From a virus (Duplodnaviria; Caudoviricetes), in the IMG/VR virus record IMGVR_UViG_3300037258_000283, positions 2,046 through 66,045 of that record: DNA of 64,000 nucleotides, one strand, 5' to 3'. The position numbers and the translations under genes were made by a program. Below the pieces are notes generated by a model, which was given only the letters and a program-made list of their open reading frames with translations, made no database searches and had not been told where the DNA came from. Below, piece by piece: positions 31,303 through 53,477 of the stretch; positions within the stretch are counted from its first letter, which is position 1, and every line of letters starts with the position of its first letter.

Positions 31303-31471
31303 GGGCTTGTTCCTTCTCCCCTTCGTCCGCCAGGAGGCGGCTGATCCGCTTCCGGACGGTGGTCTCATGGCATCCGAGGTACCGCGCCGTGGCCGCGTAC
31401 GACCCGCGTAGCAGGTACTCGAAATACACTGTACGGCTGTCCACGCTCAAGGCGGGTTCCTGCCACGTCAT
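31280..31471 (-). CDS. small HTH protein
   Basis: GSYAATARYLGCHETTVRKRISR. Confidence 0.6.
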   Translation of the reverse strand: MTWQEPALSVDSRTVYFEYLLRGSYAATARYLGCHETTVRKRISRLLADEGEKEQAHVQAVRH

Positions 31472-32370
31472 GCGGTGACGGTGAAGCCGTGCCGCGTCCC
31501 CAGCCACGTCAGCGTGGTCTTCCCGGGGATGCCGTCCGCGTCCGCGCCACGGTACCCGCGACGGCGCTGGAGTGCCGCGTACGCGGCCACGGTGGCGGAG
31601 CCGAACGACCCGTCGTAGGCGTACTCGTTGCCCAGCAGCCCTTCCAGCCGCAGTGCCGCTTCCACCGGCTTCACGTCGGCCGGACGGGTCGTGTGCCCCT
31701 GGGCTGCCTGCGGGTCGTGCTCCGCCGCGTACACCGTGTTCTTCAGCGACACCTTCGGCTTCGCCGGGACCGGCGGCGGTGCAGCCGGCGTGAACGCGGC
31801 CACCCATGCCCGGAGCGCGTCCGGCTCCAGGTGGCAGTAGTCCAGGTCCACGGTCCGCGCGGCGTACTGGTGGAACAGCCACGGTGCATCGATCCCCGGC
31901 GCGCCCGCCAGCAGCCCGGACGTGGCGATCCACAGGAAGTCCTGGTAGTAGCCGGAGGTGTCCACGTCCAGCCAGTAGTCCTTGTTGCAGTACAGCCCGA
32001 CCGGGTTGTGCGGCAGCTTCCCCTTGACGTAGGCCAGCCACGCCTCCTTGTACGCGAACTGCCGGGTGAGCGGCACGCCGGCGTTGGCCGCGTCGTAGCC
32101 CTCCCAGTCCAGGACGACCAGGTGGCCCGGCTTCACGGCCGCGTGCGCCAGGAAGTAGTCCGCCTCCACCGTCACCTGGTCGGCCATGTGCGGGTAGTGG
32201 TAGGCACCGGGAACGAGGCCGCCGGAGACGGCGCGCGCCGTCTGCGCGGTGTACTCGGGGTTCTGGTAGGTCGTGCCCTCGGTCGCCTTCGCGAAGGCGA
32301 ACGTGAGCCCGGCCGTGGGCGGGGCCGGGGGCTGGTACGAAGCCCAGTCCTGGCCGTACGAACCGGTCAT
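31468..32370 (-). CDS. endolysin, GH25 muramidase with peptidoglycan-binding domain
   Basis: GQDWASYQ, FAKATEG, GAYHY, LDWE, WLFHQY; C-terminal DGSFGSAT...ADGIPG. Confidence 0.9.
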   Translation of the reverse strand: MTGSYGQDWASYQPPAPPTAGLTFAFAKATEGTTYQNPEYTAQTARAVSGGLVPGAYHYPHMADQVTVEADYFLAHAAVKPGHLVVLDWEGYDAANAGVPLTRQFAYKEAWLAYVKGKLPHNPVGLYCNKDYWLDVDTSGYYQDFLWIATSGLLAGAPGIDAPWLFHQYAARTVDLDYCHLEPDALRAWVAAFTPAAPPPVPAKPKVSLKNTVYAAEHDPQAAQGHTTRPADVKPVEAALRLEGLLGNEYAYDGSFGSATVAAYAALQRRRGYRGADADGIPGKTTLTWLGTRHGFTVTA

Positions 32371-32371
32371 G

Positions 32372-32902
32372 TCAGCTCCCTGCGGGGTTGTTGACGATCC
32401 ACTGGTGCACGGCGTCCAGCTCCGCCGCCGTCTCGGAGGCCACCACGGCGTCGTTGGTGACCACCAGGTGGTTGTCCTGGAGGGCTTCGCCGCTGTGGCT
32501 CCAGTTGGTGGAGCCCAGGACGGTGACCGACCCGTCCACCACCATGACCTTGTCGTGCATGATCGCACCCAGGCGGCTGGTGCCGATGGCTATGTCGGCC
32601 GCCGGGTACGCCTCCTTCAGCAGGATGCGCTTCTCCTCCGAGTACGCGGCCTGGGAGCTGTCCAGGGTGATCTGGACGGACAGGCCGGACCGGATGGCCG
32701 TCTCCAACCCTGCGGCCAGGGCCGTGTCATCGAACGCGTACATGGCCACCTGGATGCTGACCGTCGCCGTGGCGACCAGTTCCAGGAGCGCGGCGTGGAT
32801 ATCGTCGTCCGGTGCGTAGAGCACCCGCAGGTTGGCCGGGTAGCCAGACGGCAGCGGGACGTGCCGGTACTGGTCCAGGAAGGTCAGGTCTGCGTAGGTC
32901 AC
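32372..32902 (-). CDS. phospholipase D-superfamily (single HKD) protein
   Basis: MHDKVMVVDG...GSTNWS...QDN. Confidence 0.88.
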   Translation of the reverse strand: MTYADLTFLDQYRHVPLPSGYPANLRVLYAPDDDIHAALLELVATATVSIQVAMYAFDDTALAAGLETAIRSGLSVQITLDSSQAAYSEEKRILLKEAYPAADIAIGTSRLGAIMHDKVMVVDGSVTVLGSTNWSHSGEALQDNHLVVTNDAVVASETAAELDAVHQWIVNNPAGS

Positions 32903-34015: not shown

Positions 34016-35125
34016 TCAGGTGTTGTCCAGGTAGTAGCTGATCCCGTTGAAACTGACCCAGGCAGGTGCGGGTGTGGCTACCCCGACCGTGTGGGTGTGG
34101 GCGCTGAGCGTGTGTGCGTGCGAGCCGACCACGCCGTGGCTGTGGTCCGGGGTGGAGTGGCTGTGGCCGCCGTAGACGTAGTGGAAGTGCGCGCTCATGG
34201 AGTGCGTGTGACCGCCGTAGACGTAGTGGGTGTGCGCGGTCCCGGCGGTCTGCGCGCCGGTGGACTCGTCAATGCCCGCGAAGCCGCCGGTGTCGGTGCT
34301 GGTCGTGCTGTCCGGGGACGTGTTCTCGTCAACGCCCACGACGTTGGTCGTGCCGCCGCCGGAGGTCGTGGTGTTGTCCACCGGGTCCACCGTGTTGGTG
34401 GAGTCCGTGGACGGCCCGGAGACGGTGACCGGACTCAGCACGGGAGTCGGGCTGCGTAGGTTCACGGAACCGTCCGTGCTGAAGTCGATCTTCACGGAGA
34501 AGACAGCGCCCTGCGCATCCCGGGCCGCGTTCAGGGAGACCAGGCTCGCCGGGACATACCCGGCCGGGATGCCACCGCTGGCGATGATGGCGGTACTGCT
34601 GCCGTCGGACGCCGCGCCGCCCTTCCAGTCCATCCGCCACGACCCGTTGTCCCACACCCGCCGGTAGCGGACGGAGCCGTTGCCGTTGCCCCCGTGGGTG
34701 AACCCAGCCCCCAGCGGGGCGAGCGTCCACCCGGACGCGGAGAACTGCGCGGCCAGCTGCCCCAGCGCGAACAGGTTGGCGTCCTGCTTGACGATCAGGC
34801 AGGTGTCCCCGACCACCGGCGCGTAGCTGTCCAGGTAGACCACACCGGTGATCGTGGTCGTGGTGTCGCCGTTGACCTGGACGCTGAGCGTGGGCGGGAC
34901 GTCCGTGGTGTCGATGGCCGTCACCTGGCCCTTGATCACCGTGGCAGGGTCGAACGCCAGGATCGACTGCTGGCTGATCGTGGTGGCCAGGTCGCGGATC
35001 TGGGAGGTGAGCGCCGCCGCGTCGGCCGCCGCCTGGGCCGCCGCCGCGTCGGCCGCCGACTGGTCCGGGGTCTCCGGCGGATCTGCGGGTACGGTCGGGT
35101 CCGGCGGGGCGCTGGGAGTGGCCAT
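34016..35125 (-). CDS. minor tail / fibre-like protein
   Basis: LDSYAPVVGD N-terminal domain; HxH repeats; WVSFNGISY C-terminus. Confidence 0.75.
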   Translation of the reverse strand: MATPSAPPDPTVPADPPETPDQSAADAAAAQAAADAAALTSQIRDLATTISQQSILAFDPATVIKGQVTAIDTTDVPPTLSVQVNGDTTTTITGVVYLDSYAPVVGDTCLIVKQDANLFALGQLAAQFSASGWTLAPLGAGFTHGGNGNGSVRYRRVWDNGSWRMDWKGGAASDGSSTAIIASGGIPAGYVPASLVSLNAARDAQGAVFSVKIDFSTDGSVNLRSPTPVLSPVTVSGPSTDSTNTVDPVDNTTTSGGGTTNVVGVDENTSPDSTTSTDTGGFAGIDESTGAQTAGTAHTHYVYGGHTHSMSAHFHYVYGGHSHSTPDHSHGVVGSHAHTLSAHTHTVGVATPAPAWVSFNGISYYLDNT

Positions 35126-36249
35126 CAGCTCGTACTTTTTTTCGCTCGCAGGGTCAGTGACTGAGTGGATGCCGCGTCCAGCGGCACCGTGAAGGCGTCC
35201 ACGGCGTACAAGCCGCTGACGTTGGCCCCCGGCTGGTCCACCTGGACCACGTCCCCGGCCTCGTAGTCCGGGTTCACGATGCCGGTGGCGGACAGCTGGC
35301 TGGAGAACCCCAGCTGTCCCGACAGCAGGGCCTGCGCGGTCGTCAGCGCGTCCGCCGCCGTGGTGATGGTCTGGTCGGTGACGAACTGCGGCACTGCCCC
35401 GTACGGCCCCAGGTAGTAGGTCGCCGATGCCGGGTCGTCGTCCCAGGCCGTGGCCGTCACCGCCGGGGCCGTGTTGCCCGGGGACGCGCCGGTCACCACG
35501 ACGCCGTTGTACCCGGGATCGTCGGTGAAGACCTGGGTCATGTCGATCAGTGAGCAGTTCTGCCCGTCGATGTAGGTGAACTCCGGCGCGGGCAGAGCGC
35601 TGATGTCCGGCGGCGGGGCGATCACCACCCACCCGTCTACATCGAAGTAGATATCGCAGCCGAGCGACGACGCCAGGGAGGTCACGGCCGTCCATGGATC
35701 GCTGCTGGCGTCGTAGAGCTGGGGGGCAGCCGTGGTCCGGGTCGTGCTGATCGCGTCGTACTGGAGGTCCGGGAAGGTCAGCGCCAGGATGCCCTGGACA
35801 GCGGTCACCAGGTTGGTGCCGGTGGCCACCGTGTACGGGACCAGGAACTTGTTCCGGCTGACCGTCCGGGACAGGTCGGACGCCTCCAGCGTGATCTGGG
35901 GAGCGCCGGTGGCCGCCGTCTTCACCGACGACTTGGACAGCCGGAAGATCCCGAGCGGGACCACCTCCGTGGTCCCGTCGTCGTACAGCACGCCCCGGTA
36001 CGGCCGCAGCTCCGTCCCGAAGGGCGTCAGCAGGGAACTGGTACCGGTCGGCACCAGCACGCCCAGCGGGTCGATGCAGGTGACCTGGCAGGTGCGCCGG
36101 GTCGTGGCGGTCCGGTCCACGGTGACGCTGCCGCCGGTGACGGGCAGCCGGACCGTCTGCTGGGTCGGGGAGACGACGTCCACGTAGCTGTACACCGTGT
36201 GGGACAGCTTGATCTCCGCCAGGAACCGGTCAGTGGCGCGCTGGACCAC
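35125..36249 (-). CDS. minor tail protein
   Basis: GGSVTVDRTATTRR, L.PFGTEL...RGV, VPLGIFRL pattern of actinophage tail proteins. Confidence 0.8.
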   Translation of the reverse strand: MVQRATDRFLAEIKLSHTVYSYVDVVSPTQQTVRLPVTGGSVTVDRTATTRRTCQVTCIDPLGVLVPTGTSSLLTPFGTELRPYRGVLYDDGTTEVVPLGIFRLSKSSVKTAATGAPQITLEASDLSRTVSRNKFLVPYTVATGTNLVTAVQGILALTFPDLQYDAISTTRTTAAPQLYDASSDPWTAVTSLASSLGCDIYFDVDGWVVIAPPPDISALPAPEFTYIDGQNCSLIDMTQVFTDDPGYNGVVVTGASPGNTAPAVTATAWDDDPASATYYLGPYGAVPQFVTDQTITTAADALTTAQALLSGQLGFSSQLSATGIVNPDYEAGDVVQVDQPGANVSGLYAVDAFTVPLDAASTQSLTLRAKKSTS

Positions 36250-36252
36250 GGC

Positions 36253-36705
36253 TCACCACCGGCCCGACGTGGAGGGCAGCCGGGCCGGCTCCGCTTCCTG
36301 GACACGCTCCCGGGCTCCGCCCGGCTCGAACGCCTCGAAGTGCCGGTAGACGTGCCGCAGCCACTCCCGGGGGCGCTCCGCCGCCGCGCGCTTCAGGCAG
36401 ACGTCCTGCGGCGTGTCCAGGACGACCACCCGGAAGCCCTTCAGCGCGAACGCCTCCCGCTCCGCCGCCTTCGGTGCACACTTGATCACCCAGGCGTCCA
36501 CGTCCCGCCGCCGGGCGTACAGCTCCAGCACCGCGTCCCGGGCCGCGAAGACGTACGGCTTGATCGAGGGGGCGTGGTAGTGCTCTTCGTCCCCTCCCAG
36601 CGCGCACATGAGCGCGTCGAAGTCCACGACAAGGTCCCCCGGGCGCTTGTGCCGGGCCACGTACAGGTTCTTGCCGGAGCACGGCGCGCCGGTGACCAGG
36701 GTCAT
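36253..36705 (-). CDS. small P-loop NTPase/kinase
   Basis: VTGAPCSGK, VVDFD, VVLDTP..VCLKRA..ERP. Confidence 0.75.
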   Translation of the reverse strand: MTLVTGAPCSGKNLYVARHKRPGDLVVDFDALMCALGGDEEHYHAPSIKPYVFAARDAVLELYARRRDVDAWVIKCAPKAAEREAFALKGFRVVVLDTPQDVCLKRAAAERPREWLRHVYRHFEAFEPGGARERVQEAEPARLPSTSGRW

Positions 36706-37451
36706 CACAGCTCCACGCACCCGATCACCGGCAGGAACAGCAGGCAGGTGGGCGACGGCGCGGCGGAGGTCGGAGCCGTGGACGGCGCGGCGGAGGTGGT
36801 GCCCGGTGCCGGTGTCACCGGATCGACCGGCACCGGGGTCAGGGTGGTGGACGGTGCGGGAACCGGCACACGGCGCGGGGGCCGGCTCCGGGTGGACGTC
36901 GCCGTGGCCGGCGTGGTGGAGGGGGGCGGTTCGCTCCCGGCCGTGGACGGTGCCTGTGCCGGGGTCGTGCCCGCGCTTGCGCCGGGCTGGGACGGTTCGC
37001 TCCCGGTGGACCCCGTCGCTTGCACCGGGGACACGGACACGGTCACACCCGGCAGTACCGTACCGACGGTAAAGGACGACGTCTTCCCCGGCGCGGTGAC
37101 GTCGATCCGCTGTACAGCCGCCTGCGACGTCGCTGGAGCCGCAGTGGTGCCGGTGCCCGCGCTCGTGCCGCTGCGTCCGGCAGAGGCGCTGCCGTGCGCC
37201 GTGGCGGAGGCACCGGGCACGACCGGACCGCCCGCCGCAGCGGTGCCGCCGGACCCCGGTGCAGGGATCGTGGGACCCAGTGCGGCGGGCGGTCCGAGCG
37301 GGGCGAGGCCGGAGTCATGGTCTGCCAGCAGGATGCCGCCCCCGGCGGACGCGGCCAGGATTCCGGCGGCCGTCCAGCGCCGCCAGTGGACCGGCCTGCG
37401 GTGTGCCGCGTGCGCGGTGCGCCACCAGGCCGGGCGGTTGTGACTGGACAT
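36705..37451 (-). CDS. Thr/Pro/Ser-rich membrane-anchored or secreted protein
   Basis: HRR..WRRW plus TM helix, low-complexity body, CLLFLPVIGC end; GAGGAACC RBS. Confidence 0.65.
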   Translation of the reverse strand: MSSHNRPAWWRTAHAAHRRPVHWRRWTAAGILAASAGGGILLADHDSGLAPLGPPAALGPTIPAPGSGGTAAAGGPVVPGASATAHGSASAGRSGTSAGTGTTAAPATSQAAVQRIDVTAPGKTSSFTVGTVLPGVTVSVSPVQATGSTGSEPSQPGASAGTTPAQAPSTAGSEPPPSTTPATATSTRSRPPRRVPVPAPSTTLTPVPVDPVTPAPGTTSAAPSTAPTSAAPSPTCLLFLPVIGCVEL

Positions 37452-40400: not shown

Positions 40401-41407
40401 GTGTCCTGGACCATCACCGCGTTGGCGGTGGTGTACTCCAGGGCGTCGGTCAGCGTCTCGAAGTCCGCCTGCTGCACCGAGAGCAGGTTGGAACTGTCCC
40501 GCAGCGTGAGCGCGACGGAGGACGTGTAGGCGTCCGGGACGACCGAGACGACACCGATCCCCGGGACGCCCGAGACGGTGTTGTCGTTGCCCGGGACACC
40601 GGGAGCGGGACCGTCCACCGAGAACGACCGGGACGCCCACGGCGAGACAGCGCCGGAGCTGGAGACGACCCGGACGTATACCGCGTAGTTGTCCGGGTCC
40701 AGGGAGGTGGGCAGCGTGTCCGAGACGATGTCCCCGGTCACGGTGGCTGCGTACACCGGCGGGGCCGTGTCCGGGCTGAAGGAGGGGTCGGCCGCCTGGA
40801 TCGCGGTGAAGACCCGGTAGTCGGCAGAGGTCTGGAGGTCCCCGTCCGGCTGCGCGTAGGTCCACGTGACCGTGGGGGAGGGGGTCAGCACGGTGCCGGT
40901 CGGCCCGGTGACGGTCACCACGGCCGCCGCCCGGTAGTTGACCACGGCGTACAGCTCGTAGACGTTCACACAGCCGCCCACGGCCGTGTAGGTGAAGCAC
41001 TGGAGGAGCAGTTTGTTCAGCCGGTGGACGTCCCAGGCGTAGCCCAGCGGGTCCCGCGAGTAGGTGCCGACGGTGTAGGTGGTCGGCGTGGACGTCGGGT
41101 AGATCGTGCGGGAGGTGAACCGGGACGTGTCGTCGGTACAGCTCATGTTCACGGTCAGCGAGACAGCGGCACTGGTCGTCTTCGCGCAGCGGACCTGGAT
41201 CACCACGGAGGTGATCACGGCTCCGGCCGGGACGGTGGTGACGTCGATCGGGAAGGAGCAGCAGGCGCGGCCCTTGCTCGCCGGGCACGCGCAGTAGTTC
41301 GTGTCCGAGGTGCTGGACCAGCACTGGTTCAGGGTGGCGAAGGCTCCGGCGAAGGTCCACCCCTCGTTCCGGAAGTCGGTGATCGGCTTGTGGCTGAAGG
41401 AGGTCAC
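37475..41407 (-). CDS. large minor tail protein
   Basis: ~1310 aa, Thr/Ser-rich, directly after the tape measure gene; duplicated DLMIA...GWTLV...QFLAENVS domain. Confidence 0.8.
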   Translation of the reverse strand: MTSFSHKPITDFRNEGWTFAGAFATLNQCWSSTSDTNYCACPASKGRACCSFPIDVTTVPAGAVITSVVIQVRCAKTTSAAVSLTVNMSCTDDTSRFTSRTIYPTSTPTTYTVGTYSRDPLGYAWDVHRLNKLLLQCFTYTAVGGCVNVYELYAVVNYRAAAVVTVTGPTGTVLTPSPTVTWTYAQPDGDLQTSADYRVFTAIQAADPSFSPDTAPPVYAATVTGDIVSDTLPTSLDPDNYAVYVRVVSSSGAVSPWASRSFSVDGPAPGVPGNDNTVSGVPGIGVVSVVPDAYTSSVALTLRDSSNLLSVQQADFETLTDALEYTTANAVMVQDTSVSYAGVASGRLTASSAATMSASSTMVPIAAGAPVTVRSQFLAAATGRTINIRCLFYDMNFSSVSGTLTGTGTDSTSTWTEITATGTVPAAAVWAAVQLEVVSPANAEIHNVDHVGLMYGTNSLWSDGGHASRNILSSFLATGDSPTATSWVASSGSTIALVATTGTGSHGTSTNRITYTGITPSIGYRATGTVFTTPTSGSDYTLNTPAGVVATDLMIAYVTSSVAGSITPPAGWTLVDTATSSGTTLWVLARSSGGGEPSSYAGVVGTVSTRREAVVVAYSGAADVSQQFLAENVSSRSTPTPLYATTATVANTDPNAWRVAAFAVASPTTGGSMTANILPPSVVPPIAYVGRATAWGSTATTTSYTINRPSGVVSGDLMIAVLSVFGSITTVNAPSGWTLVHQKIQSDGTGPQTMAVFKRTAGSSEPTSWTGVLSSSSTVAMLSEASAYRNADVAANQFLAENVSATNNSDFLTTATVTNTNSSAWRVSIFGASAIYTPTWGVSETAMRSNDWVQQDWTWYEVAVALADSNGPVGAGAQSGFGEISRSFYAAVSWMGFIKPLPSPPSPGANETERADTTVGSATPWVTTAVYDSNGVVPTGNTSVTGVFTPGSGSVLTSAASWIGIIRPATPITAGLAKATLPASVDLSKLDPNILVLGGNQATFVASFLGSSSGTPYLSLSFYRANELISTATAQGTPFSTTLWTASAATFTVPDGTTRISGSVSVSGRAVSDLIYFDRIGIMIGDAVVWRNGTGRTAHAVWSVPVIQYADDPGTGYGDWTVLPGFTDTPPSYDPLSGLITVIDHTVVPLTNRRYRAQTVAYGLAGDQFVSGYGPTSDEVSLVASNWWLKDMVDPDSNMMLRVQANPLAVGTTNTSSVYQPLGADYPVVLTEGYKADSFQLTLVMNHAEYFQLKALLKLGRTLFLQSDVDHAWWVRPNGDLSGEIQVTGQRRTNPVRFVKVTFTEVTPNT

Positions 41408-44400
41408 GGTTTCCTGCCTACTCCCTGCTTCAGCGCCAGCCGGAGCTGTGGGACCACGGTACGCCCCAGATGGTCCATGGTCTCCGGGGTGGCGTTCCCG
41501 GTGATCGTCACCGGCATGTTGACCGTGACGTCCCCGCCGCCGCCGGACAGGGCGTTCCGCAGGTCGGCGTTCGACATGATCGACTCTCCGCCCCGGGTCT
41601 GCATCAGCTCCGGTCCCAGCTCCCCGACGATCGACATACCGGGCCTGGCGTAGGTCGTCCCGGCCGCGTACTTGGCCGTCGGATCGAACCCGTAATGCCA
41701 CATGAACAACGGGTCGTTCCACCCGCGCGCGCCGGAGCCCACGTGAATGCCGCCCGCCGCCGACTCCACGTTGACGCCGTTCAGGGTGCCCGCCGTGTGG
41801 CCGACCCCGGCACTGGTCACGCCGATCATGAACGGTGCCTTCGCGTTCTCCACCCACCCGGGCGCGGCCGTGGCACCGTCGAAGGACATCGTGGCCCACT
41901 GCCGGTGCGGCTGCATCCCCTGGATCACGGATTCAATCGCGGACATGAAGCCCGAGTTGTGCACCACCACCCCGTCGGCGATGAAGTTGTGAGCCCCTTC
42001 CACCTCGAGATCGTACGTGTCCTGTATCCCCTCACAGCTGACCTCGAGCACCCGGGTAACCGTGAAGTCGCCCGCGTCCATCCATGCGGCGACTCCGGGA
42101 AGACGCCTCAGCGCTGCCTCTCCGCGTCCCGTCCCGGGCCACACCGTGAAGCTGTGGAGGGGCAGTGCGTTCCTGACCCGGACACACTTGATAGTGATCG
42201 GCTTCGTCCGGTGGTTGGTGGACACGTTGGAGACCGGCTGACCCATCATGATGTGCAGGGCACGGACGTCCTCGAGCAGTTCACGGGATGCCGACGCGTA
42301 TGTGCGCTCTCCGTGCTTGGCGGGGTTCTGCGGGTGGTGGCCGTCAGCGTCGCAGTACCCGTTCAGGAACGCCTGCCGGAGCTCTGCCACCCAGGTCCAC
42401 ACCGCGTCAGGGACACGCTTCTCCGGACCCGGTACCCGGAGACCCATGCCCTCGAGCATTCTGACCAGGGACACGCTCGAGGCGACCACACCGTGTTTGG
42501 CAGACGTAAAGCTGTTGATCCCCAGTGACGCGAACACCTGCTGTGCCCGAACGCTGTCGTCTCCGTACACGCATATCCGGATCGTGTTGTCCGTGAGGTA
42601 TCCGTCCCCGATGAACAGCCCCAGGAGCCACGCAACGTCATCCGTTACGGGGGTTCCGTCGGGGAGGCGGGCGTCGTCAACGCTGTCGGGCCGCATCTCC
42701 CGGGGCTGGACAAGCAGGTCCCCGCGCTCGAGTTCGTCCAGCCGCGCCCATTCAACGCCGTACCGGGCCGGGGACTGCTCCCCGCGACGGCCGCCCCTGA
42801 TGCGCCTCGCGGGCTCGACCTCCACCAGTTTCATGAACGGGTGGTTGGCCGACGCCGTGACGATCCGGTTACGGGTGCGGACCCGGTACACCTGCTGGGT
42901 CTCTGACTGCCATGCAGCCGTGACCGTCTGGACGGTCACCTTCCCGTCCACGTAGGAGAAGACCTCGTCTCCGGCAGCCACATCCTTGATCGGGGTTGCC
43001 CCATGGGGGCCATAAATCCTCACAGGTCCTGTTATACAGCAGTCCCAGGAGGGGTTCCCATTACCGCCCCACTGGTACGGCTTGCCGTTCTGCGTGCGTG
43101 CCCAGGCGAGTGCGGTCACGGAACTCCCGGTGCCGACCGGGCCGCCGCCGGACCCGGCCGGGGCGACGTCCTTGCCTTTCACCCACGACTCGATCGTGCT
43201 GACCATCTTGGTGGGGATGGCGTCCGCCAGCGTCTGGAGGTCGCCGGACGGGGTCACGGCGTTGATCGTCCCGATAGCTCCCTTGAGCATGGCGTTCAGC
43301 GCCGGGTCGATGACGTCGGCCACGCCACCGAGGACCACGTTCTTCAGCGCGTCCGCCGCGCTGCTGATCGCTCCGCCGATGCCCTTCACCACACCGGTGA
43401 TCGTCCCCAGGACCCCGCCGCCGCTGGCGTAGTTGCCGGCCGCGTCCCCCAGCGTGCGCACCGGGGCACCGCCCATGACCGCGCTGCGCAGGGCCGCCAC
43501 GGCGTTGTGGCCGCCGGCGGCGGCCACCTCCGCCGCCGTCCAGACGTGCTCCCCGTTCGACAGGGCTGCCATCACGGAGTCCGAGGTGGCCGTCCCCGGG
43601 CCGGAGACCGGGCCACCGGCCGCGAACGCGGGGAGCACGAAGGGCTGGAGCTTCGAGGCACCGAAGACCCCGGCGACGTCGTTCCACAGCGCCACGATGC
43701 CCTCGTTGTACACCACGTCCACGATCGCCTGGATAGGCGCGCGGACGATGTTCTTGATCGAGTTCCAGGCCGCCCCGATGGCGTTGACCCCGGCCGTGAA
43801 GGCACTGGGAATAGTCTTGGTGAAGAAGGTGCTGAGCGGGTTCCAGAAGGTCGTGAGGAAGAAGTTCAGCCCGGCGTTGAACACGGCCTGGAGCGCCGTC
43901 CAGAGCGCGCCCGCCGCCGTCTGGAGCGCCGACCAGACGGCCGTGGCCGCCGTCTTGATCAGGTTCCACGCCGTGGACCAGGCCGTCTCCAGCACGGAGA
44001 GGAAGGCGGAGAAAGCGGCCTTGATCGCGGTCCAGACCGCCGCCGCTGCCGTCTCCAGCGCCCCCCAGATCGCGGTACCGGCTGCCTTGACAGCATTCCA
44101 GGCCGTGTTCCAAACCGTCTCCACACCGGTCAGGAAGGTCTGGAACACGCTGGATATGGCTGTCCAGATCGCCTGTCCGACAGCCTTGATCGCATTCCAG
44201 GACGAAGAGAAGAAAGCGGAGAAGACGGACATGAACCCGTTGTAGATCGTCAGGAGAACGTCGGTGAACGCCTGCCAAGCAGCGGACATCACGTTCCATA
44301 TGGCCTGGCCGGCGGCCTTGATCGCGTTCCAGGCGACGCCCCAGTTTCCGGTGAAGATCGCGAAGAACGTGGTGAAGATCGCTGTCACCACCGCCCACAG

Positions 44401-46449
44401 TGCGGACCAGGCAGCGGAGATCACGGACCAGACACCGGTGGCGATCGAGACGACCACCGACCACGCTGCTTTGAAGATCGCTGAGAAGGTCGCGTAGAAG
44501 ACGTTCCATATCCCGGTGACCACAGACCACAGGATCGACCATGCGCCCGACAGCACCGACCAGGCCAGCTGCGCCACAGCACTGATCAGGGCCCAGAAAA
44601 CCTTCCACTCCGCTGTCAGGACCGACACGAAGACGGTCCAGACGGCCTGGATCACAGCCCACACCGCTTGCCAGGCGTCCTGGAGTGCGGTCCAGACAGC
44701 TTGAGCTGACGTAGACACGTCCGTCCAGCCGGTGGTGAAGTCGGTCCCCCACACCGACCAGAAGTCATTCCAGATGTCCGTGAAGAACGTCCACAGGTCC
44801 TGCCACAGCTGTTGCAGGGACTGCCAGACGTCCTGTGCCGCGAGCTTCGCCTGAGGCCACACGGTGTCCCAGGACTTGAACACGGGGTCCATGACCCCGT
44901 GGTAGGCGTCGGACAGCCCGCCGACCGTGTCCGACCAGGCGCTCTGCATCCATCCCCAGACGTCGGAGGCCACCTGCTTGATCGTTCCCCAGATCGCGGA
45001 CCAGTGCGCGGCCACGAAGATCAGTACACCGACCGGCCCCATCAGGATCAGCAGCAGTTGCCCCATGCCCTGGGTCAGGAAATTCCAGACATCCACGGCG
45101 GTGCCCTTGATCGCATTCCAGGTGGCCGCCCACGCGCTCTGCAACCAGCCCCAGACAGCGGAGGCCGCGTCCTTGATCGCGCCCCAGACCGTGGACCAGT
45201 ACGACACCAGGAAGTAGATCCCGACCCCCAGCGCCACCAGCGCGGCCACCACGACAAGGACGGTCAGTGCCATCCCGGCAAAGAGGATCAGCAGTGGGCT
45301 GGTAGCCAGGGCCAGGGCGAAGGACACGGTGGCGGCTATGGCCCCGTAGAGGTTGAAGGCCAGCAGTGCGGCGTTCCACGCCAGGTAGGCGTATGCCAGG
45401 TCCTGGATCAGGGACGGGTTCAGCTTGGCGATCAGGTTGAGAAGGATCACCACCGCGCTGAGGGACAGGCCGCTCATGTTCTTGGCGGCCTTGAACAGGT
45501 TGAGCAGGGAGTCACCCAGTGACTTGGCGGACTGGATCAGGGCCGGTCCGTTCTGCTTCAGATAGGTCATGAAGTCGGAGAACCCGCCGCCGGAGGCCCA
45601 CTTCTGGAAGTCCTCCGCCACGTCCTTGACCCAGCTGCCGAAGTCCACCCCCAGCGGGGCCGTGGCCCGCATACCGTCCCCGAGGGCTCCGAACAGCGCC
45701 CTGCCGGCCGCCTCCAGGTCGTACAGCACCGGGATGCCCACCGACTTCACGAACGCCAGGAAGGTGTCCAGACCGCCGCCGGTGACCCAGTTCTTGGTGG
45801 CCGTGGCGATCGACTGGACCACCGGTGCCAGGTCCACGATCACGGAACGGAGCTTGGGGATCGCGTCCGTGGCCGCCTGGACCATCGTCGTGGCCGGACC
45901 CAGGGTATAGCTCATGGTGCTGGTCACCAGGTCCTGCCAGGCACCCTTCATCGTGTCGATGCTCACGGCGAACTGCTGCTGGACCGGGGTGAGCCCGGCT
46001 ATGGCTGCCTGGTGCTGCTTCTCCAGGGCGATGACCTTCGTCTCTTCCGCCCCGTACGCCTTCGTGCCGGCCGTCATGGTGCTGAGCTTGACCTGAGCGG
46101 CGTCCAGGGCGTTGCCGGTGGTGGTCACGGCCGATTTCGCACCGATCACTTCGGAGATGGCCGTCTCCATCACCCCGCCGAATATCCCGACGGCGGCCCC
46201 GGCCCCGATAAACGCGGTGCCCGCCGCCGCACCGATCCCCAGCAGCCCGGCACCGATGGGGACCAGTGCCGGACCGAGGCCGATGATGGCGGAACCGAAG
46301 AGGTCGACACCCTCCGTGAGGTTGCCCCACGCCTTGTTCTGGTCGTCCAGCTTGCTGTTCAGGGTCGCCATGCTGGCCTGGGCAGCGGTCACGCCCGCCG
46401 GGTTGTACGCCGAAACGATACTCAGGGTCAGGCTGGTGATCAGCGCCAC
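41404..46449 (-). CDS. tape measure protein with C-terminal NlpC/P60 domain interrupted by an intein
   Basis: Ala/Trp 11-residue repeats; FAAGG.V.GPGTATSD; GKPYQWGG...WDC|intein|SGF...GHTAG. Confidence 0.93.
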   Translation of the reverse strand: MALITSLTLSIVSAYNPAGVTAAQASMATLNSKLDDQNKAWGNLTEGVDLFGSAIIGLGPALVPIGAGLLGIGAAAGTAFIGAGAAVGIFGGVMETAISEVIGAKSAVTTTGNALDAAQVKLSTMTAGTKAYGAEETKVIALEKQHQAAIAGLTPVQQQFAVSIDTMKGAWQDLVTSTMSYTLGPATTMVQAATDAIPKLRSVIVDLAPVVQSIATATKNWVTGGGLDTFLAFVKSVGIPVLYDLEAAGRALFGALGDGMRATAPLGVDFGSWVKDVAEDFQKWASGGGFSDFMTYLKQNGPALIQSAKSLGDSLLNLFKAAKNMSGLSLSAVVILLNLIAKLNPSLIQDLAYAYLAWNAALLAFNLYGAIAATVSFALALATSPLLILFAGMALTVLVVVAALVALGVGIYFLVSYWSTVWGAIKDAASAVWGWLQSAWAATWNAIKGTAVDVWNFLTQGMGQLLLILMGPVGVLIFVAAHWSAIWGTIKQVASDVWGWMQSAWSDTVGGLSDAYHGVMDPVFKSWDTVWPQAKLAAQDVWQSLQQLWQDLWTFFTDIWNDFWSVWGTDFTTGWTDVSTSAQAVWTALQDAWQAVWAVIQAVWTVFVSVLTAEWKVFWALISAVAQLAWSVLSGAWSILWSVVTGIWNVFYATFSAIFKAAWSVVVSIATGVWSVISAAWSALWAVVTAIFTTFFAIFTGNWGVAWNAIKAAGQAIWNVMSAAWQAFTDVLLTIYNGFMSVFSAFFSSSWNAIKAVGQAIWTAISSVFQTFLTGVETVWNTAWNAVKAAGTAIWGALETAAAAVWTAIKAAFSAFLSVLETAWSTAWNLIKTAATAVWSALQTAAGALWTALQAVFNAGLNFFLTTFWNPLSTFFTKTIPSAFTAGVNAIGAAWNSIKNIVRAPIQAIVDVVYNEGIVALWNDVAGVFGASKLQPFVLPAFAAGGPVSGPGTATSDSVMAALSNGEHVWTAAEVAAAGGHNAVAALRSAVMGGAPVRTLGDAAGNYASGGGVLGTITGVVKGIGGAISSAADALKNVVLGGVADVIDPALNAMLKGAIGTINAVTPSGDLQTLADAIPTKMVSTIESWVKGKDVAPAGSGGGPVGTGSSVTALAWARTQNGKPYQWGGNGNPSWDCCITGPVRIYGPHGATPIKDVAAGDEVFSYVDGKVTVQTVTAAWQSETQQVYRVRTRNRIVTASANHPFMKLVEVEPARRIRGGRRGEQSPARYGVEWARLDELERGDLLVQPREMRPDSVDDARLPDGTPVTDDVAWLLGLFIGDGYLTDNTIRICVYGDDSVRAQQVFASLGINSFTSAKHGVVASSVSLVRMLEGMGLRVPGPEKRVPDAVWTWVAELRQAFLNGYCDADGHHPQNPAKHGERTYASASRELLEDVRALHIMMGQPVSNVSTNHRTKPITIKCVRVRNALPLHSFTVWPGTGRGEAALRRLPGVAAWMDAGDFTVTRVLEVSCEGIQDTYDLEVEGAHNFIADGVVVHNSGFMSAIESVIQGMQPHRQWATMSFDGATAAPGWVENAKAPFMIGVTSAGVGHTAGTLNGVNVESAAGGIHVGSGARGWNDPLFMWHYGFDPTAKYAAGTTYARPGMSIVGELGPELMQTRGGESIMSNADLRNALSGGGGDVTVNMPVTITGNATPETMDHLGRTVVPQLRLALKQGVGRKP
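41956..43038 (-). mobile_element. intein (361 aa) with LAGLIDADG homing endonuclease
   Basis: CITG start; TASANHPF block B; WLLGLFIGDG and FLNGYCDADG; TYDLEVEGAHNFIADGVVVHN end; Ser+1. Confidence 0.93.
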
Positions 46450-46463
46450 GGCGTACCCTCCGA

Positions 46464-46790
46464 TCAGTCGTCCGGCTCGTCATCGTCCGCCGTGTCCTGC
46501 GGCGGGCGGTCGTGCACTTCGTGGGGCCGCTTGTGGTGGGCCGGCTCCGGCATGGGGTTCCGTTCGAAGTTCGCGGCCCCGAACATCCGGCAGAGGTTCT
46601 GGGTCATCTCGTGCAGCTGTGCCAGCGTCTCCGCCTCCCACGACCCGTCCAGCGGACCGGCGTAGCGCTCGTACGCGGCCCACTGAGCCAGCTCACGGGA
46701 GGTATGGATCTCCAGCACCCGGCGCACCGGGACGCCCATCCTCAGTGCTAGCCGGCAGTAGAGCCCCCGTTCGGGTCGCCGGTGAAATCC
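46464..46790 (-). CDS. tail assembly chaperone, -1 frameshift extension
   Basis: Slippery GGATTTC (46784-46790); the -1 frame reads ...RLALRMGVPV...ELAQWAAYERYAGPL. Confidence 0.72.
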   Translation of the reverse strand, partial: GFHRRPERGLYCRLALRMGVPVRRVLEIHTSRELAQWAAYERYAGPLDGSWEAETLAQLHEMTQNLCRMFGAANFERNPMPEPAHHKRPHEVHDRPPQDTADDDEPDD

Positions 46791-47161
46791 TCGGTCATCT
46801 CCGCCACGTCCGCCTCCGACAGGCCGTTCATCTCGTTGCACTTGTTGAAGACGCGGCTGAGCCCCGCCGCCGACTTGTTGCCGAGCGCGCGCACGTCCGA
46901 ATCGGAGAAGACCACCGCACCGATTTCGTCCACGATGCACAGCGCGGCCAGCCGGGCGCGGACGTTGACCACGCTGCCCTTGCGCTTCCCGTCCGGGGAG
47001 TTGGTCATCGACGCCTCGAAGGCGTCGCGCTCCTTCCCGGTCAGGCTCCGCAGCCGGACGCTGCCGCCCCACTCCGGGACCGGGATTACCTCGTACGTCC
47101 GGTCGTCCGCCTTGAGGATGTCGTCCCTGCCGAGCAGTACCGGTGCCTTGTCCAGTTCCAT
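46748..47161 (-). CDS. tail assembly chaperone
   Basis: LGRDDIL...VPEWGGSVRLRSLTGKERDAFE. Confidence 0.85.
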   Translation of the reverse strand: MELDKAPVLLGRDDILKADDRTYEVIPVPEWGGSVRLRSLTGKERDAFEASMTNSPDGKRKGSVVNVRARLAALCIVDEIGAVVFSDSDVRALGNKSAAGLSRVFNKCNEMNGLSEADVAEMTEDFTGDPNGGSTAG

Positions 47162-47251
47162 GGTCTGTTCCTCTCGCTGCGGATCGCTGCGGGTCGTAGG
47201 ACGGGCCGGGGTGACCCGCAAGAGCCCCCGGCCCGTCCCGATCAGTTGTCG

Positions 47252-47737
47252 TCAGTCCCCGGCAGCCGCGTCGTGGACCTCTTGCGCCACGTCCTCCAGC
47301 ACCTCGTGGAGTGCGTCTGCCAGATCTTCCTGGCCCTCTTCGAACGGTTTGGCGAACCACTCGCCGCCGGTCGTCTGGAGAACCCAGACGTGGCGGTTGC
47401 CGTAGACCGGGTGCCGCCACCCGTTGTCGGCGTCCAGGTAGGCCGGAAGGCTGGCCTCACCAGCCCGGTTCATGGACGCGGAGATGGTCACGCCGTCCCG
47501 GGTGATCCGGGTACCGACGCCCGCCGCCACCCGGGCACGGAGACCGGTGTGCTTGATCCCGTGAACGGCCAGGGCCATGACGTCTTCGCGCGACTTGTCC
47601 ACCAGCGGCTTGACCGCCTCCACCAGGGCATCGCGCAGCCGTTCCGCCAGCGTCTCGTCTGTGATCCGGAGCGCGTCGATGGCGCGCCGGAAGTCCGCAC
47701 CGGGGCTGACGGTCGTCCTGAGCGTGCCGGAGGCCAT
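47252..47737 (-). CDS. tail completion / neck protein
   Basis: WRHPVYGNR..WV.Q....WF motif; position among tail genes. Confidence 0.7.
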   Translation of the reverse strand: MASGTLRTTVSPGADFRRAIDALRITDETLAERLRDALVEAVKPLVDKSREDVMALAVHGIKHTGLRARVAAGVGTRITRDGVTISASMNRAGEASLPAYLDADNGWRHPVYGNRHVWVLQTTGGEWFAKPFEEGQEDLADALHEVLEDVAQEVHDAAAGD

Positions 47738-48153
47738 TACGCCGTGGCCCGCGCGATACCGGTCCGCTGGGTCGGGAAGGTGACCTGGGTCGTGCTCAGG
47801 TCGCCGACCTTGCCGGACAGGGGCTGGTACTCCAGCAGGATGCAGGTCGCGGTGAAGGACGGGTTCGCGGGACCGACGGCGCTTGCCGTCGGCTTGACGA
47901 CGACGGTGAACTCGGTCTCGTTGTCGTAGAGCGGGAACAATGTCGCGTCCACCTCCGCCGCCGCGAAGTCCTGCTGGAAGGTGATCACGTACTTGTCGGA
48001 GCTGAGCCCGGCCACCTGCTCCGTGCCCTGGCCGCTGAAGTTCGTAGTGGTGATCGCGGCCTTGATCAGGTCGATCTCCACGGACTCGCAGTGGTCGGAG
48101 AAGTCCACGCCGTTCACGACGATGTCACAGTCACGAAGAACGATCTTGCCCAT
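47737..48153 (-). CDS. major tail protein
   Basis: VNGVDFSDH...FQQDFAAAEVDATL...NPSFT...G.VGDL. Confidence 0.8.
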   Translation of the reverse strand: MGKIVLRDCDIVVNGVDFSDHCESVEIDLIKAAITTTNFSGQGTEQVAGLSSDKYVITFQQDFAAAEVDATLFPLYDNETEFTVVVKPTASAVGPANPSFTATCILLEYQPLSGKVGDLSTTQVTFPTQRTGIARATA

Positions 48154-50645: not shown

Positions 50646-53477
50646 CTACTTGGCGACCAGGACCCGGAAGGCGTTCGAGTCGAGCACGGCCGAACCGTTG
50701 CGCCAGATGGCGAACAGGCCGCGCTGCCCGGTCGGGAAGTTGTTCGCGGTCCCGAACAGGTGCGGGATCAGTTCCACGCTCATGCCGATGCGGTCCACGA
50801 TCAGGAACTTCTGGAAGTCCCCGAAGATCGCCAGCTTGGTCGTGGTGACCAGGCCGGTCGCGTTGGGCATGGTCGATGCCTCGTAGACCGGGTACCCGGC
50901 CAGTTCCGAGGGACGGCCGCCACCCAGCTGGGTCCACAGCGCGGCACCGCCGTAGATGTCGATGGAGCGCACGAGGTTGTAGAACGCCTTCTGCGCGAGC
51001 CACGCCGCGTTCGGCTCATGGCGCGGGGGCAGCGCGTTGACCGGCAGGAACAGGTCCGCCAGCACCAGCGTCAGCGTGGTACCGGTGTTGATCGTGTTGG
51101 TCGCGCCGACCAATACGCCCTGCGGGTTGGGCGGGGTGTTGTTGCCCGTCACGAAGGCCGTGGCCTCCTCGACGTTCTTGCCCTCCTGGAGCATCAGACC
51201 CAGCTCTTCCTGGATCTGGGTCCAGTCCTGCTCGATCTCGAAGCTGAACGGGATGAACGCCTGGACCCGGCTGGGGGTCACCGAAGGCTGCGCCAGGGTC
51301 GGGCTGTTGTCGGACGCCTCAGCGGCCTCCGCCGCACGGCTGACGGTCACGCCCGCCGACGTCACGCCCTCCCAGGTGGTCCGCACCGTCTGGACGACGC
51401 GCGCGATCTGCCGGATGGGGTTGACCACGGACGCGTTGGTGAGGATCACCGTCGGGTCCAGGTCGAACGGGACGGCGTAGTCACCGGTCGCACCCGCACC
51501 GGCCGCGAGCGACGCGCGCTCCTCATTGGTCAGGGTGTTGGTGCCGCCCGAGAGCGCCACCTTCCCGAAGGCGCGGGAGTAGATCGGCGAGCCGGTCACC
51601 AGGATGCGGCGGGCCAGCGTGCCCTCCTTGTCGTCCACGCGCTTCAGCAGCCGCTCCACGGCCGACTGGGCGTCACCGACGTTGGCGGCCGGGGCGTAGG
51701 TACCGCGCTCCACCGCGCGGAGTGCGTTCTCCCGCAGGCTGTCCCGGTAGTCGTCCATGGACCGGGCATCGCGGCGGAGCGCGGCCAGGTCGTAGATGTT
51801 CTCCTGCGCACGCCGCTGGCCGCCGGTGCCCGCGCCGCCGGTGGGGGCGGTGAAGCCGGTGCCGTTCTCGGTACTGCCGGCACCGGCCAGCTTGGCGATC
51901 AGGGCCTTGCGGGCGTTCGCGGACCGGATGGCCTGGTCATGGTCCTCGTGCTCGGACGCCAGACGCTCCATCTCCGCCTGCTGCTCCGCCGGGAGCGAGC
52001 CGCCCGCGTACTCGGTGTCCAGCTCCGTGATCCGCGCGCGGATCTCTTCCTGCCGGGCCTGGCGCTCTTCCACCGTCATGGCGAAATCGGACACGTTCGT
52101 GCCTCTCTGCTGGTTCGCTGGGTTGCCTTCACCCGCAGAGTGCACGTCGTGCGGCTCTTCGGTCCCTTCGGACGCGGCCCCGGCTGGCGGGGTGCTGGTC
52201 GTGCTGGTCGCGGCCCCGGCCGGCGGGGTGCTGTTGCTCTGGTCGTCCGAGATCTCGATCCCGAACTTCGTGCAGGCTGCCTTGATCTTACTCTTGACCT
52301 TCGCCAGGTTCTCCGCGCTGTACATGCCCGCGTTCTTCGCCTGATTGATGTAGGACCAGGCTGCCTGAGCGTGAGCCTTGGTGTCCAGGGGGTAGCGCTT
52401 CTTGCCGTCGTCCTGGTACCCGGGGTCCGCGTAGTCCACGTCGCCGAACGGCTTCGCCGGATCGGCCATCCGGTCGCCCCCGGCCACGGGCTGGCCCTCC
52501 ACGTCCGTGGACACGTTGAACTTCGCGCACGCGGCCTTGATCGCTGCCTTGACCTTCGCCATGTCAGCCGGGCTGTACAGGTCGGGCGCGTCCGGGTGAT
52601 TGATGAACGCCCACGACAGCTGCGCGTGCGCGGCCGTGTCGATCGGGTAGCGCTTCTTACCGTCCTTCTGGTACCCGGTGTCCGCGCAGGTCACCCCGGC
52701 CCACGGGTTGCCGCTCTCCGCCGCCGGGTCGTCCGCGTCCGGGTCGTCGGGGTCGGCCACCGGCGCGGTCGTGGCGGACCGCAGCTCCCGCACGCTGCGC
52801 AGTGCGTCCGCGTACTGCTCCGGACGACGGCTGCGCAGTGCGGCGTAGTAGTCGTCCGTGGTGGAGCGCAGCCCGGCCGTGGCCGCTCCGTTCGCCGGGA
52901 ACATGGTCGGACCGAATTCCATCACGCGCGCCTCACGGATGGTGCGCTCCGGCAGGCCGTCCGGGTTGGCGTCGCTGCGCGTCGGCGCGTCGTCCCAGTC
53001 GTCCAGGACCACCTGGAACCGGAATGACGACCCGTACGCGCCCGCCTCCAGCGCCGGGACCAGGTCCCGGACGTACGAGGTGTCCAGCAGCTGGACATCG
53101 TAGGCCGGGCCGTTGCTGTCCTCTTCGATCCGCAGCGGGATTCCGATCGGCTTGTCCGCCACCTGGGGGTCGTGGCCGTGCTCCAGCAGCACCTTGATTC
53201 CCTGAGCGGGATTCTTCCGGCTGGCGTTGTCGCTGAGCGTTTTCTTGAACGCTCCCGGGGCGACCTTCTCCAGGAACCGCCCTTCCCAGGCGGAGTCGAT
53301 CGGGTAGAAATCCCCGAAGGTGGAGAAGTGGCCGGACATGATCGGCATACCGGAGCTGGGAGCGGTGCCGTCCGGCGCGACGCCGCGCAGTTCCACGGCC
53401 TCCGCTGTCTGGGTCCGGCACACGGGGATCGTGAGGCGGACCGGCGCTCCCCCGATCGGTTCGATGTCAGCGGGCAT
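50646..53477 (-). CDS. HK97-type prohead protease fused to major capsid protein
   Basis: F.E.VAPGAF, LLEHG, GSSFRF, EFGPTMFPA protease motifs; capsid from ~52094 (GDYAVP, AAEAAE, FGDF, GQRG). Confidence 0.9.
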   Translation of the reverse strand: MPADIEPIGGAPVRLTIPVCRTQTAEAVELRGVAPDGTAPSSGMPIMSGHFSTFGDFYPIDSAWEGRFLEKVAPGAFKKTLSDNASRKNPAQGIKVLLEHGHDPQVADKPIGIPLRIEEDSNGPAYDVQLLDTSYVRDLVPALEAGAYGSSFRFQVVLDDWDDAPTRSDANPDGLPERTIREARVMEFGPTMFPANGAATAGLRSTTDDYYAALRSRRPEQYADALRSVRELRSATTAPVADPDDPDADDPAAESGNPWAGVTCADTGYQKDGKKRYPIDTAAHAQLSWAFINHPDAPDLYSPADMAKVKAAIKAACAKFNVSTDVEGQPVAGGDRMADPAKPFGDVDYADPGYQDDGKKRYPLDTKAHAQAAWSYINQAKNAGMYSAENLAKVKSKIKAACTKFGIEISDDQSNSTPPAGAATSTTSTPPAGAASEGTEEPHDVHSAGEGNPANQQRGTNVSDFAMTVEERQARQEEIRARITELDTEYAGGSLPAEQQAEMERLASEHEDHDQAIRSANARKALIAKLAGAGSTENGTGFTAPTGGAGTGGQRRAQENIYDLAALRRDARSMDDYRDSLRENALRAVERGTYAPAANVGDAQSAVERLLKRVDDKEGTLARRILVTGSPIYSRAFGKVALSGGTNTLTNEERASLAAGAGATGDYAVPFDLDPTVILTNASVVNPIRQIARVVQTVRTTWEGVTSAGVTVSRAAEAAEASDNSPTLAQPSVTPSRVQAFIPFSFEIEQDWTQIQEELGLMLQEGKNVEEATAFVTGNNTPPNPQGVLVGATNTINTGTTLTLVLADLFLPVNALPPRHEPNAAWLAQKAFYNLVRSIDIYGGAALWTQLGGGRPSELAGYPVYEASTMPNATGLVTTTKLAIFGDFQKFLIVDRIGMSVELIPHLFGTANNFPTGQRGLFAIWRNGSAVLDSNAFRVLVAK

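Follow-up and report, generated by a model that had tools for sequence, protein, structure and literature searches.

Insertion at the DCSG motif of a tape measure protein

We analyzed a window of 64,000 bases, meaning the whole stretch of DNA under study, out of a 66,045-base virus record of IMG/VR (IMGVR_UViG_3300037258_000283) with an estimated completeness of 77%; the G+C content of the window is ~69%. Its minus strand carries the gene for a 1681-amino-acid tape measure protein (TMP) precursor that contains a 361-amino-acid intein (Table 1). The insert is very probably a selfish class-1 intein, competent to splice and equipped with a LAGLIDADG homing endonuclease, placed in frame immediately after the catalytic Cys of a divergent NlpC/P60-type domain near the C-terminus of a siphovirus TMP. 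A plus-strand reading of positions 41956-43038 was rejected because translation in that direction gave only stops and meaningless sequence, with no signal. The protein matched 14 PHROG families labelled 'tail length tape measure protein', with E-values from 7e-43 (phrog_5448, the best) to 1e-5, and its gene, the largest of the tail genes, directly follows the tail assembly chaperone genes and precedes the minor tail genes, in a minus-strand order that PHROG scans read as terminase, portal, protease-capsid, adaptor, major tail protein, chaperone, TMP gene and tail protein. These matches and the gene position identify the product as a TMP, as the original prediction had it. We also observed a match to phrog_971, a family labelled 'endolysin', at an E-value of 4.5e-61. 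The Pfam TMP models PF10145 and PF20155 were not found in the 1681-amino-acid protein at E-values up to 0.01; both are represented in many relatives of the window TMP.

We next placed the intein in the translated open reading frame (ORF) by script. The segment CITGPV...GVVVHN corresponds to amino acids 1138-1498 and is flanked in the precursor by RTQNGKPYQWGGNGNPSWDC on the N-terminal side and SGFMSAIESVIQGMQPHRQW on the C-terminal side, in exact agreement with the coordinates and boundary strings of the original prediction. All of the residues expected for class-1 splicing are present: Cys1, S63-x-x-H66, His360-Asn361 and Ser+1. Cys1, S63-x-x-H66, D145/G146, D232/G233, the HNF block and His360-Asn361 are either kept in at least 95% of 67 related inteins from the same insertion site (site a, described below) or invariant or nearly so in an alignment of 42 rows. 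Both of the LAGLIDADG motifs that had been described as intact-looking are present, and their Asp and Gly residues are invariant or nearly so among the relatives.

Profile searches and structure prediction agree on the identity of the insert. Intein_splicing (PF14890; Pfam cut-off 35.8 bits) scored 50.8 bits on the excised 361 amino acids and 43.7 bits on the whole protein, and LAGLIDADG_3 (PF14528; cut-off 22.5 bits) scored 38 bits on the excised intein, spanning intein residues 221-261; the Pfam Hom_end model gave only a sub-threshold match to the excised intein. The Hint match on which the original prediction had been made to depend was thus found. A phmmer search of the intein against PDB sequences returned weak matches only, to the Ssp DnaB and Mxe GyrA inteins (E-value about 2e-4). 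An AlphaFold model of the intein, built from the 42-row alignment, had a pLDDT of 95.1 and a pTM of 0.91. Foldseek matched this model best to the TliVMA intein (7qsu; E-value 4.8e-21, TM 0.70), followed by PhoVMA, PI-SceI, PI-TkoII and PI-PfuI; the HINT part of the model resembled the mini-inteins Ssp DnaB, Mxe GyrA and Mtu RecA (TMt 0.65-0.80), and the inserted domain resembled I-DmoI. The solved inteins TliVMA/PhoVMA (7qsu, 7qss, 7qst), PI-SceI (1vde), PI-PfuI (1dq3) and PI-TkoII (2cw7) share with the window intein a HINT fold with an inserted two-motif LAGLIDADG domain (E-values 4.8e-21 to 3.6e-13, TM 0.54-0.72), although their sequences are only 14-18% identical to it and their hosts are ATPases or polymerases, whereas the host of the window intein is a virion cell-wall hydrolase. 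Together, the above-threshold matches to both Pfam models and the fold matches to endonuclease-bearing inteins bear out the call of an intein with a two-motif LAGLIDADG endonuclease.

Alleles lacking the intein define the insertion point precisely. A tblastn search with the C-terminal 665 amino acids against 50,697 phage records matched 37 of them, and for the Streptomyces phages Kromp, AbbeyMikolon, SF1 and Nesbitt the match fell into two pieces that are contiguous in the record. The translated TMPs of Kromp and AbbeyMikolon read ...GNPSWDCSGL/F... without interruption, and the two extein halves of the window protein align edge to edge (columns 83 and 84) on this WDCSG motif. Similarly, the N-extein reaches position 931 of the phrog_971 profile and the C-extein begins at position 932, such that the halves abut exactly. 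IMG/VR contains 311 stretches coding for relatives of the uninterrupted domain, and all 80 of the loci that were kept from these, on which the empty-allele figures given here rest, have an uninterrupted DCSG. The nearest of them, L010 and L013, share 25 of the 30 residues that precede the site and 11 of the 12 that follow it; an IMG/VR locus search with the C-extein alone returned one marginal locus. Hence, intein-less alleles of the kind that the original prediction had proposed to look for in related phages do exist and read WDCSGF without a break, and removal of the 361 amino acids restores the DCSG motif, as had been claimed.

One feature of the splicing domain is atypical. The block B motif of inteins is usually T-x-x-H. 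In the window intein, this block is S63-A-N-H66, with S63 conserved in at least 95% of the 67 inteins and H66 invariant in the 42 rows; the replacement of Thr by Ser weighs against our interpretation of the insert as a splicing-competent intein. It would fit a Hint domain domesticated to cleave its junctions without ligation, such that the TMP matures into pieces. Cleave-only Hint domains exist, in the form of bacterial intein-like domains, and the TMP is processed at its C-terminus in other phages, lambda gpH being an example. By contrast, the full set of splicing residues, with Ser+1 and the terminal His-Asn among them, is present and conserved; ligation at the insert would rebuild a conserved active-site motif that hundreds of relatives have in one piece; and the insert retains a homing endonuclease, as mobile inteins, unlike domesticated cleavage modules, typically do. 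We therefore regard domestication for cleavage as extremely improbable, and favor splicing by a class-1 intein.

Table 1. Positions of the intein, the split host domain and other genes in the 64,000-base window.
Feature	Position	Strand	Basis or remark
Class-1 intein, 361 aa (Cys1 ... His360-Asn361), with inserted LAGLIDADG homing endonuclease domain	41956..43038	-	Pfam, AlphaFold model, Foldseek
Intein Cys1 codon (TGT), first splicing nucleophile	43036..43038	-	conserved in at least 95% of 67 site-a inteins
Asn361, which ends the intein, and Ser+1, which opens the C-extein	41953..41958	-	His360 and Asn361 invariant in 42-row alignment
LAGLIDADG motif 1, AWLLGLFIGDG, intein residues 136-146	42601..42633	-	A136, W137, G140, G146 invariant, D145 nearly so; model helix 133-145
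LAGLIDADG motif 2, AFLNGYCDADG, intein residues 223-233	42340..42372	-	G227, Y228, D232, G233 invariant; model helix 218-232
N-extein, aa 1-1137, ending ...GKPYQWGGNGNPSWDC	43039..46449	-	translation; aligned to Kromp/AbbeyMikolon up to Cys of WDCSG
C-extein, aa 1499-1681, starting at Ser+1 (SGFMSAIES...)	41407..41955	-	phrog_971 resumes at position 932; aligned to intein-less alleles from DCSG Ser
N-terminal piece of split NlpC/P60-like domain, about aa 1105-1137	43039..43137	-	residues 1-33 of modelled L010 intein-less domain
Predicted catalytic Cys codon of NlpC/P60-like domain, precursor aa 1137 (intein -1 residue)	43039..43041	-	aligns with DCSG Cys of LytE, CD1368, Acd24020
C-terminal piece of split NlpC/P60-like domain, about aa 1499-1590	41680..41955	-	fold match of L010 model to NlpC/P60
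GHTAG His, aa 1551, C-extein residue 53	41797-41799	-	aligns with LytE His
NVES Glu, aa 1562	41764-41766	-	equivalent E97 invariant in 70 intein-less domains
TMP precursor gene, intein included	41404..46449	-	ORF, 1681 aa plus stop; PHROG matches and gene order
Large terminase	55147-56736	-	PHROG
Portal	53479-54939	-	PHROG
Protease-capsid fusion (apparent)	50646-53477	-	PHROG
Head-tail adaptor	between protease-capsid and major tail protein genes	-	PHROG
Major tail protein	47737-48153	-	PHROG
Tail assembly chaperone	46748-47221	-	PHROG
Tail protein	35125-36249	-	PHROG
Endolysin	31468-32568	-	PHROG

The host domain and its relation to NlpC/P60 hydrolases

We assessed the identity of the split domain using its intein-less relatives, and ran the fold tests on one of these, L010, in place of the spliced product of the window. 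Residues C33, H86, E97 and S98 (L010 numbering) are invariant across 70 intein-less domains. A profile of these 70 domains, compared with PDB sequences, matched the TMP gp16 of mycobacteriophage Douge over the whole domain (E-value 1e-9; residues 1283-1419 of the 8zdo sequence), the diffocin hub-hydrolase CD1368 and C. difficile Acd24020 (4.5e-5), B. subtilis LytE over its whole catalytic domain (about 1e-3), and other NlpC/P60 proteins. In the main text of the paper on the Douge tail, the modelled part of the TMP is limited to residues 1658-1699, and the hydrolase-like module goes unmentioned, with no occurrence of the terms NlpC or peptidoglycan (PMC13033339). In the alignment to LytE, the Cys of DCSG and the His of GH(T) line up with the Cys (DCSG) and His (SHMG) of LytE, and the downstream GHT His that had been pointed out in the original prediction is present in the window protein. 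A model of the L010 domain (pLDDT 84.9) places Cys33 as the first residue of a helix (residues 33-44), with His86 and Glu97 in successive strands.

Structure comparisons with the L010 model gave a consistent picture. The 50 matches listed by Foldseek were NlpC/P60 enzymes except for two phage endolysins near the bottom, and the 33 best entries from VIA-align were all of NlpC/P60 type (Z 9.2-7.5), ahead of phage/CHAP-type endolysins. Among the D,L-endopeptidases matched were E. coli MepS/Spr, B. subtilis LytE/CwlO, C. difficile Acd24020 and M. tuberculosis RipA/RipB, with Z from 9.2 to 7.7, an rmsd of about 3 A and about 110 of 138 residues aligned; the motif G-x-PY-x-W-G-G...DCSG is common to these enzymes and the host domain. 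The host domain differs from them in the region after the Cys helix, in the likely use of Glu or Ser instead of a third His, and in scoring below the Pfam cut-off.

Several observations weigh against a straightforward NlpC/P60 assignment. A Pfam search of each extein half of the window protein returned nothing at E-values up to 10, NLPC_P60 (PF00877; cut-off 23 bits) included, and in the intein-less TMPs of Kromp and AbbeyMikolon NLPC_P60 reached only 16.8 and 18.9 bits, over profile positions 1-23 alone. The third catalytic position is offset by one relative to the LytE His, falling on Glu97 or Ser98. The Foldseek matches are moderate (E-values from 7e-4, TM 0.5-0.59), and VIA-align Z values below 8 may reflect a common arrangement, the best value here being 9.2. 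We conclude from the sequence profiles and the model that the host domain represents a divergent member of the NlpC/P60 superfamily and does not belong to PF00877 in the strict sense. The original assignment to NlpC/P60 therefore stands at the level of the superfamily, on the fold and on the alignment of Cys and His with the catalytic residues of LytE, and does not extend to the Pfam family.

Distribution, insertion sites and mobility of related inteins

A search with amino acids 1040-1681 of the window protein returned 497 proteins at E-values up to 0.001. Among the best 120 of these TMP relatives, 76 (the window protein included) match the intein by BLAST and 44 do not, in a ranking biased toward intein carriers, since the query itself held the intein. 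Named carriers include Streptomyces, Gordonia and Nocardia genomes and the Gordonia phage BearBQ. The nearest relatives of the window TMP are Streptomyces prophage TMPs, and the phage is probably a Streptomyces-type actinophage. A phmmer search with the intein against 1.84 billion representative sequences returned 2712 matches at E-values up to 0.001 and 120 at E-values up to 1e-30. The statement in the original prediction that inteins are uncommon in virion cell-wall hydrolases thus holds for the literature and fails for the sequence databases, where 76 of the best 120 TMP relatives carry a related intein.

BLAST was used to project the intein junctions of 197 proteins, namely all those on either list except the window protein and one duplicate. 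The junction of the window intein, DC^C...N^SG (site a; carets mark the splice junctions), was found in 68 of the 197 proteins, and a variant in which a residue other than Gly follows the Ser (site a') in 14. A further 12 proteins have the junction D^C...N^CSG (site b), one residue upstream, with the catalytic Cys as the +1 nucleophile, and 13 have other D^C...N^C junction types; the remainder comprise 57 proteins with other junction contexts and 33 with partial or uncertain junctions. Two hosts with a related intein at the same motif pass the PF00877 cut-off (P0193, 61.5 bits; P0067, 26.3 bits), and related inteins also occur in stand-alone NlpC/P60 hydrolases. In P0161 (intein at amino acids 1271-1686) and P0167 (1115-1531), DCSGF is intact and a related intein of ~416 amino acids lies at GHMAGTL^C...HN^SG(V/T)N(I/V)ES, in the part of the NlpC/P60-like domain that separates the catalytic His from the conserved Glu-Ser. 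Pfam hosts among the other contexts include portal proteins and one trypsin-like peptidase. We conclude that, as these junctions largely show, this intein lineage specializes in the catalytic center of NlpC/P60-type hydrolases from phages and prophages of actinobacteria, using three micro-sites: after the Cys, before the Cys and beside the His.

The site-b inteins include a second lineage in the Streptomyces TMPs P0049, P0051, P0054, P0057-P0061 and P0064, which read GNGNPSWD^CLTLSS...HN^CSGF with nearly the same extein; the two that were compared, P0049 and P0060, are 33-34% identical to the window intein. An unrooted FastTree phylogeny of 162 inteins placed the window intein in a well-supported group of six with P0006-P0010, and nine site-b inteins in one long-branched group within a larger, mostly site-a group. 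This tree was a quick one with long branches flagged; because it is unrooted, we make no claim that site b arose from site a, or the reverse. Sites a and b are one residue apart, as are TerL1-a and TerL1-b, inteins in the P-loop of mycobacteriophage terminases (Kelley et al., 2016; PMC5050341). The host in that case is an ATPase P-loop, whereas in the window it is the nucleophile of a cysteine peptidase, and the main text of Kelley et al. (2016) does not mention tape, tail, lysin or cell wall.

The junction types also bear on the suggestion in the original prediction that the adjacent Cys(-1)/Cys1 pair might allow redox control, in which splicing would be conditional, for example on reversible oxidation of this pair, and would serve as a switch that controls hydrolase activation or tail assembly. 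Inteins sensitive to redox state are known, the mycobacterial DnaB helicase intein having been described as an oxidative stress sensor (PMC6195587). The DC^C arrangement is found in all 68 site-a and 14 site-a' proteins, but this follows from how the classes are defined. Cys(-1) is the predicted catalytic residue of the host enzyme, such that its conservation is uninformative about regulation; moreover, 12 related inteins have the D^C...N^CSG junction, which lacks the Cys pair, and others adjoin the His. Disulfides between adjacent Cys residues are strained and rare, and the TMP is made and assembled in a reducing cytoplasm. We found no support for redox control, and consider a redox switch highly unlikely; Cys(-1) is adequately explained as the enzyme nucleophile. 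The broader notion that conditional TMP splicing, whether redox- or folding-dependent, serves as a checkpoint coupling activation of the virion hydrolase to tail assembly is a conjecture to which we attach little probability.

Comparison of inteins with their hosts is informative about spread. The window intein is 71-76% identical to the inteins of P0006-P0010, although the preceding 440 amino acids of the TMPs are only 28-32% identical and the C-exteins 44-62%. The intein of Gordonia phage BearBQ gp17 (OR253908.1), at the same insertion point (...WGDC^CLTSEN...GIVVHN^SGAMS), is 53-57% identical to the window intein; it is likewise a class-1 intein with a LAGLIDADG endonuclease, matching both Intein_splicing and LAGLIDADG_3, whereas the exteins have no BLAST-detectable similarity and the hosts differ, being Gordonia for BearBQ and, for the nearest relatives of the window TMP, Streptomyces prophages. 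The BearBQ GenBank record annotates this product as 'tape measure protein' only. The 60 nucleotides around the site are conserved in the 80 empty alleles (median 48/60 identical to the window, best 52/60), and GC3 is 0.81 in the intein and 0.90 in the exteins. The contrast in identity, the conserved empty targets, the shift in GC3 and the A/T-ending first codons of the intein are consistent with spread by homing; against this, the higher identity of inteins than of exteins may partly reflect the fast divergence typical of TMPs, and not recent transfer. The first four intein codons, TGT ATA ACA GGA, all end in A or T, which is unusual for a genome of 69% G+C.

It is possible, though in our judgment unlikely, that splicing has been kept and the endonuclease is dead, making the intein a fixed passenger that is inherited vertically and is turning into a mini-intein. 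No near-identical intein-less sister genome was found among the relatives searched, and the closest TMP relative, P0006 (67% identical over the queried region), also bears the intein; both points weigh against a mobile element. Scans for close intein relatives, which depend on exact short peptide patterns and give no measure of abundance, point the same way: a scan of IMG/VR with the single intein returned no relative, a scan with a two-row intein alignment returned one weak IMG/VR locus, and a scan of genome contigs returned one Gordonia tangerina intein locus. By contrast, relatives show little or no variation in the two LAGLIDADG motifs and their acidic residues; the endonuclease domain has a high-confidence fold that matches the active enzymes PI-SceI and I-DmoI; many conserved empty target sites exist; and similarity among the inteins far exceeds that among their host TMPs, suggesting continuing transfer. 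Judging from these sequence features, the intein is probably still mobile.

Consequences for the tape measure protein, and neighboring genes

The chemistry of the intein family suggests how the TMP would be made. The protein would be translated as the 1681-amino-acid precursor; Cys1 would attack the Cys(-1)-Cys1 peptide bond; the N-extein would be handed to Ser+1; and cyclization of Asn361 would free the intein, with Cys1137 joined to Ser1499 in a 1320-amino-acid TMP whose ...WDCSGF... active site is intact. The freed intein would then act as an endonuclease, cutting the DNA of the conserved motif in intein-less TMP alleles during co-infection or encounters between phage and prophage, and copying itself in. 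Until splicing, the hydrolase is probably inactive, because the insert severs the nucleophile from the helix that, in the L010 model, the Cys caps.

Splicing would also be expected to precede tail assembly. The TMP of Douge is a trimer that fills the lumen of the tail tube (PMC13033339), and by analogy a folded intein of 40 kDa would hardly fit in this space; we consider obligatory splicing before tail assembly to be a reasonable inference. That infectivity depends on splicing, as the original prediction had proposed, is plausible. It is doubtful that infectivity requires the hydrolase, because the hydrolase motif in the TMP of mycobacteriophage TM4 is reportedly dispensable for viability. Given that the TMP threads into a narrow tail tube, intein-bearing TMPs offer a convenient natural system for asking whether splicing must precede virion assembly.

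The window intein is genuine but an ordinary selfish element, a further member of a widespread lineage, and TMPs are already on record as intein hosts: a recent survey lists the TMP among the intein hosts that it newly reports (bioRxiv 10.1101/2025.01.02.630785). The main text of that preprint does not mention peptidoglycan, hydrolase, NlpC, active site, BearBQ, Gordonia or Streptomyces; its supplements may give the insertion site. Our literature search returned no paper whose title concerned an intein in an NlpC domain or, under the spelling 'tapemeasure', an intein in a TMP. We found no evidence that raises the window intein beyond an ordinary selfish element. It is one case of many, with dozens of TMPs of Streptomyces, Gordonia and Nocardia phages or prophages carrying related inteins, and adds a well-documented example of a virion structural protein with an intein, located at an enzyme nucleophile instead of a nucleotide-binding site. 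There is a practical consequence for annotators, who will overestimate tail length from intein-bearing TMP genes and overlook the hydrolase domain, since the split domain is invisible to Pfam.

Some neighboring genes have unusual features (Table 1). The protease-capsid gene is a single ORF of 943 amino acids, with a head maturation protease at residues 48-287 and a major head protein at residues 465-942, and looks like a fusion of the two. A 155-amino-acid ORF amid the tail genes (36253-36720, minus strand) carries the PHROG labels 'terminase small subunit' (E-value 3.7e-28) and 'head maturation protease', which are odd for its position and probably unreliable. Weak tblastn matches at 60382-61029 raised the prospect of a second intein in the window, which we rejected: the minus-strand ORF there (60100-61194) is free-standing, and the matches arise because some inteins carry similar Cys-rich inserts. 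This ORF encodes 364 amino acids, with about eight Cys-rich repeats of the form C-x2-C ... G-x-C-x2-HY-x-R and an HNH-like C-terminus (HHINGD...N-x-x-NL), and its product is probably a free-standing HNH homing endonuclease. It is located in the end of the window that has a lower G+C content (0.64-0.66 at 58-64 kb).

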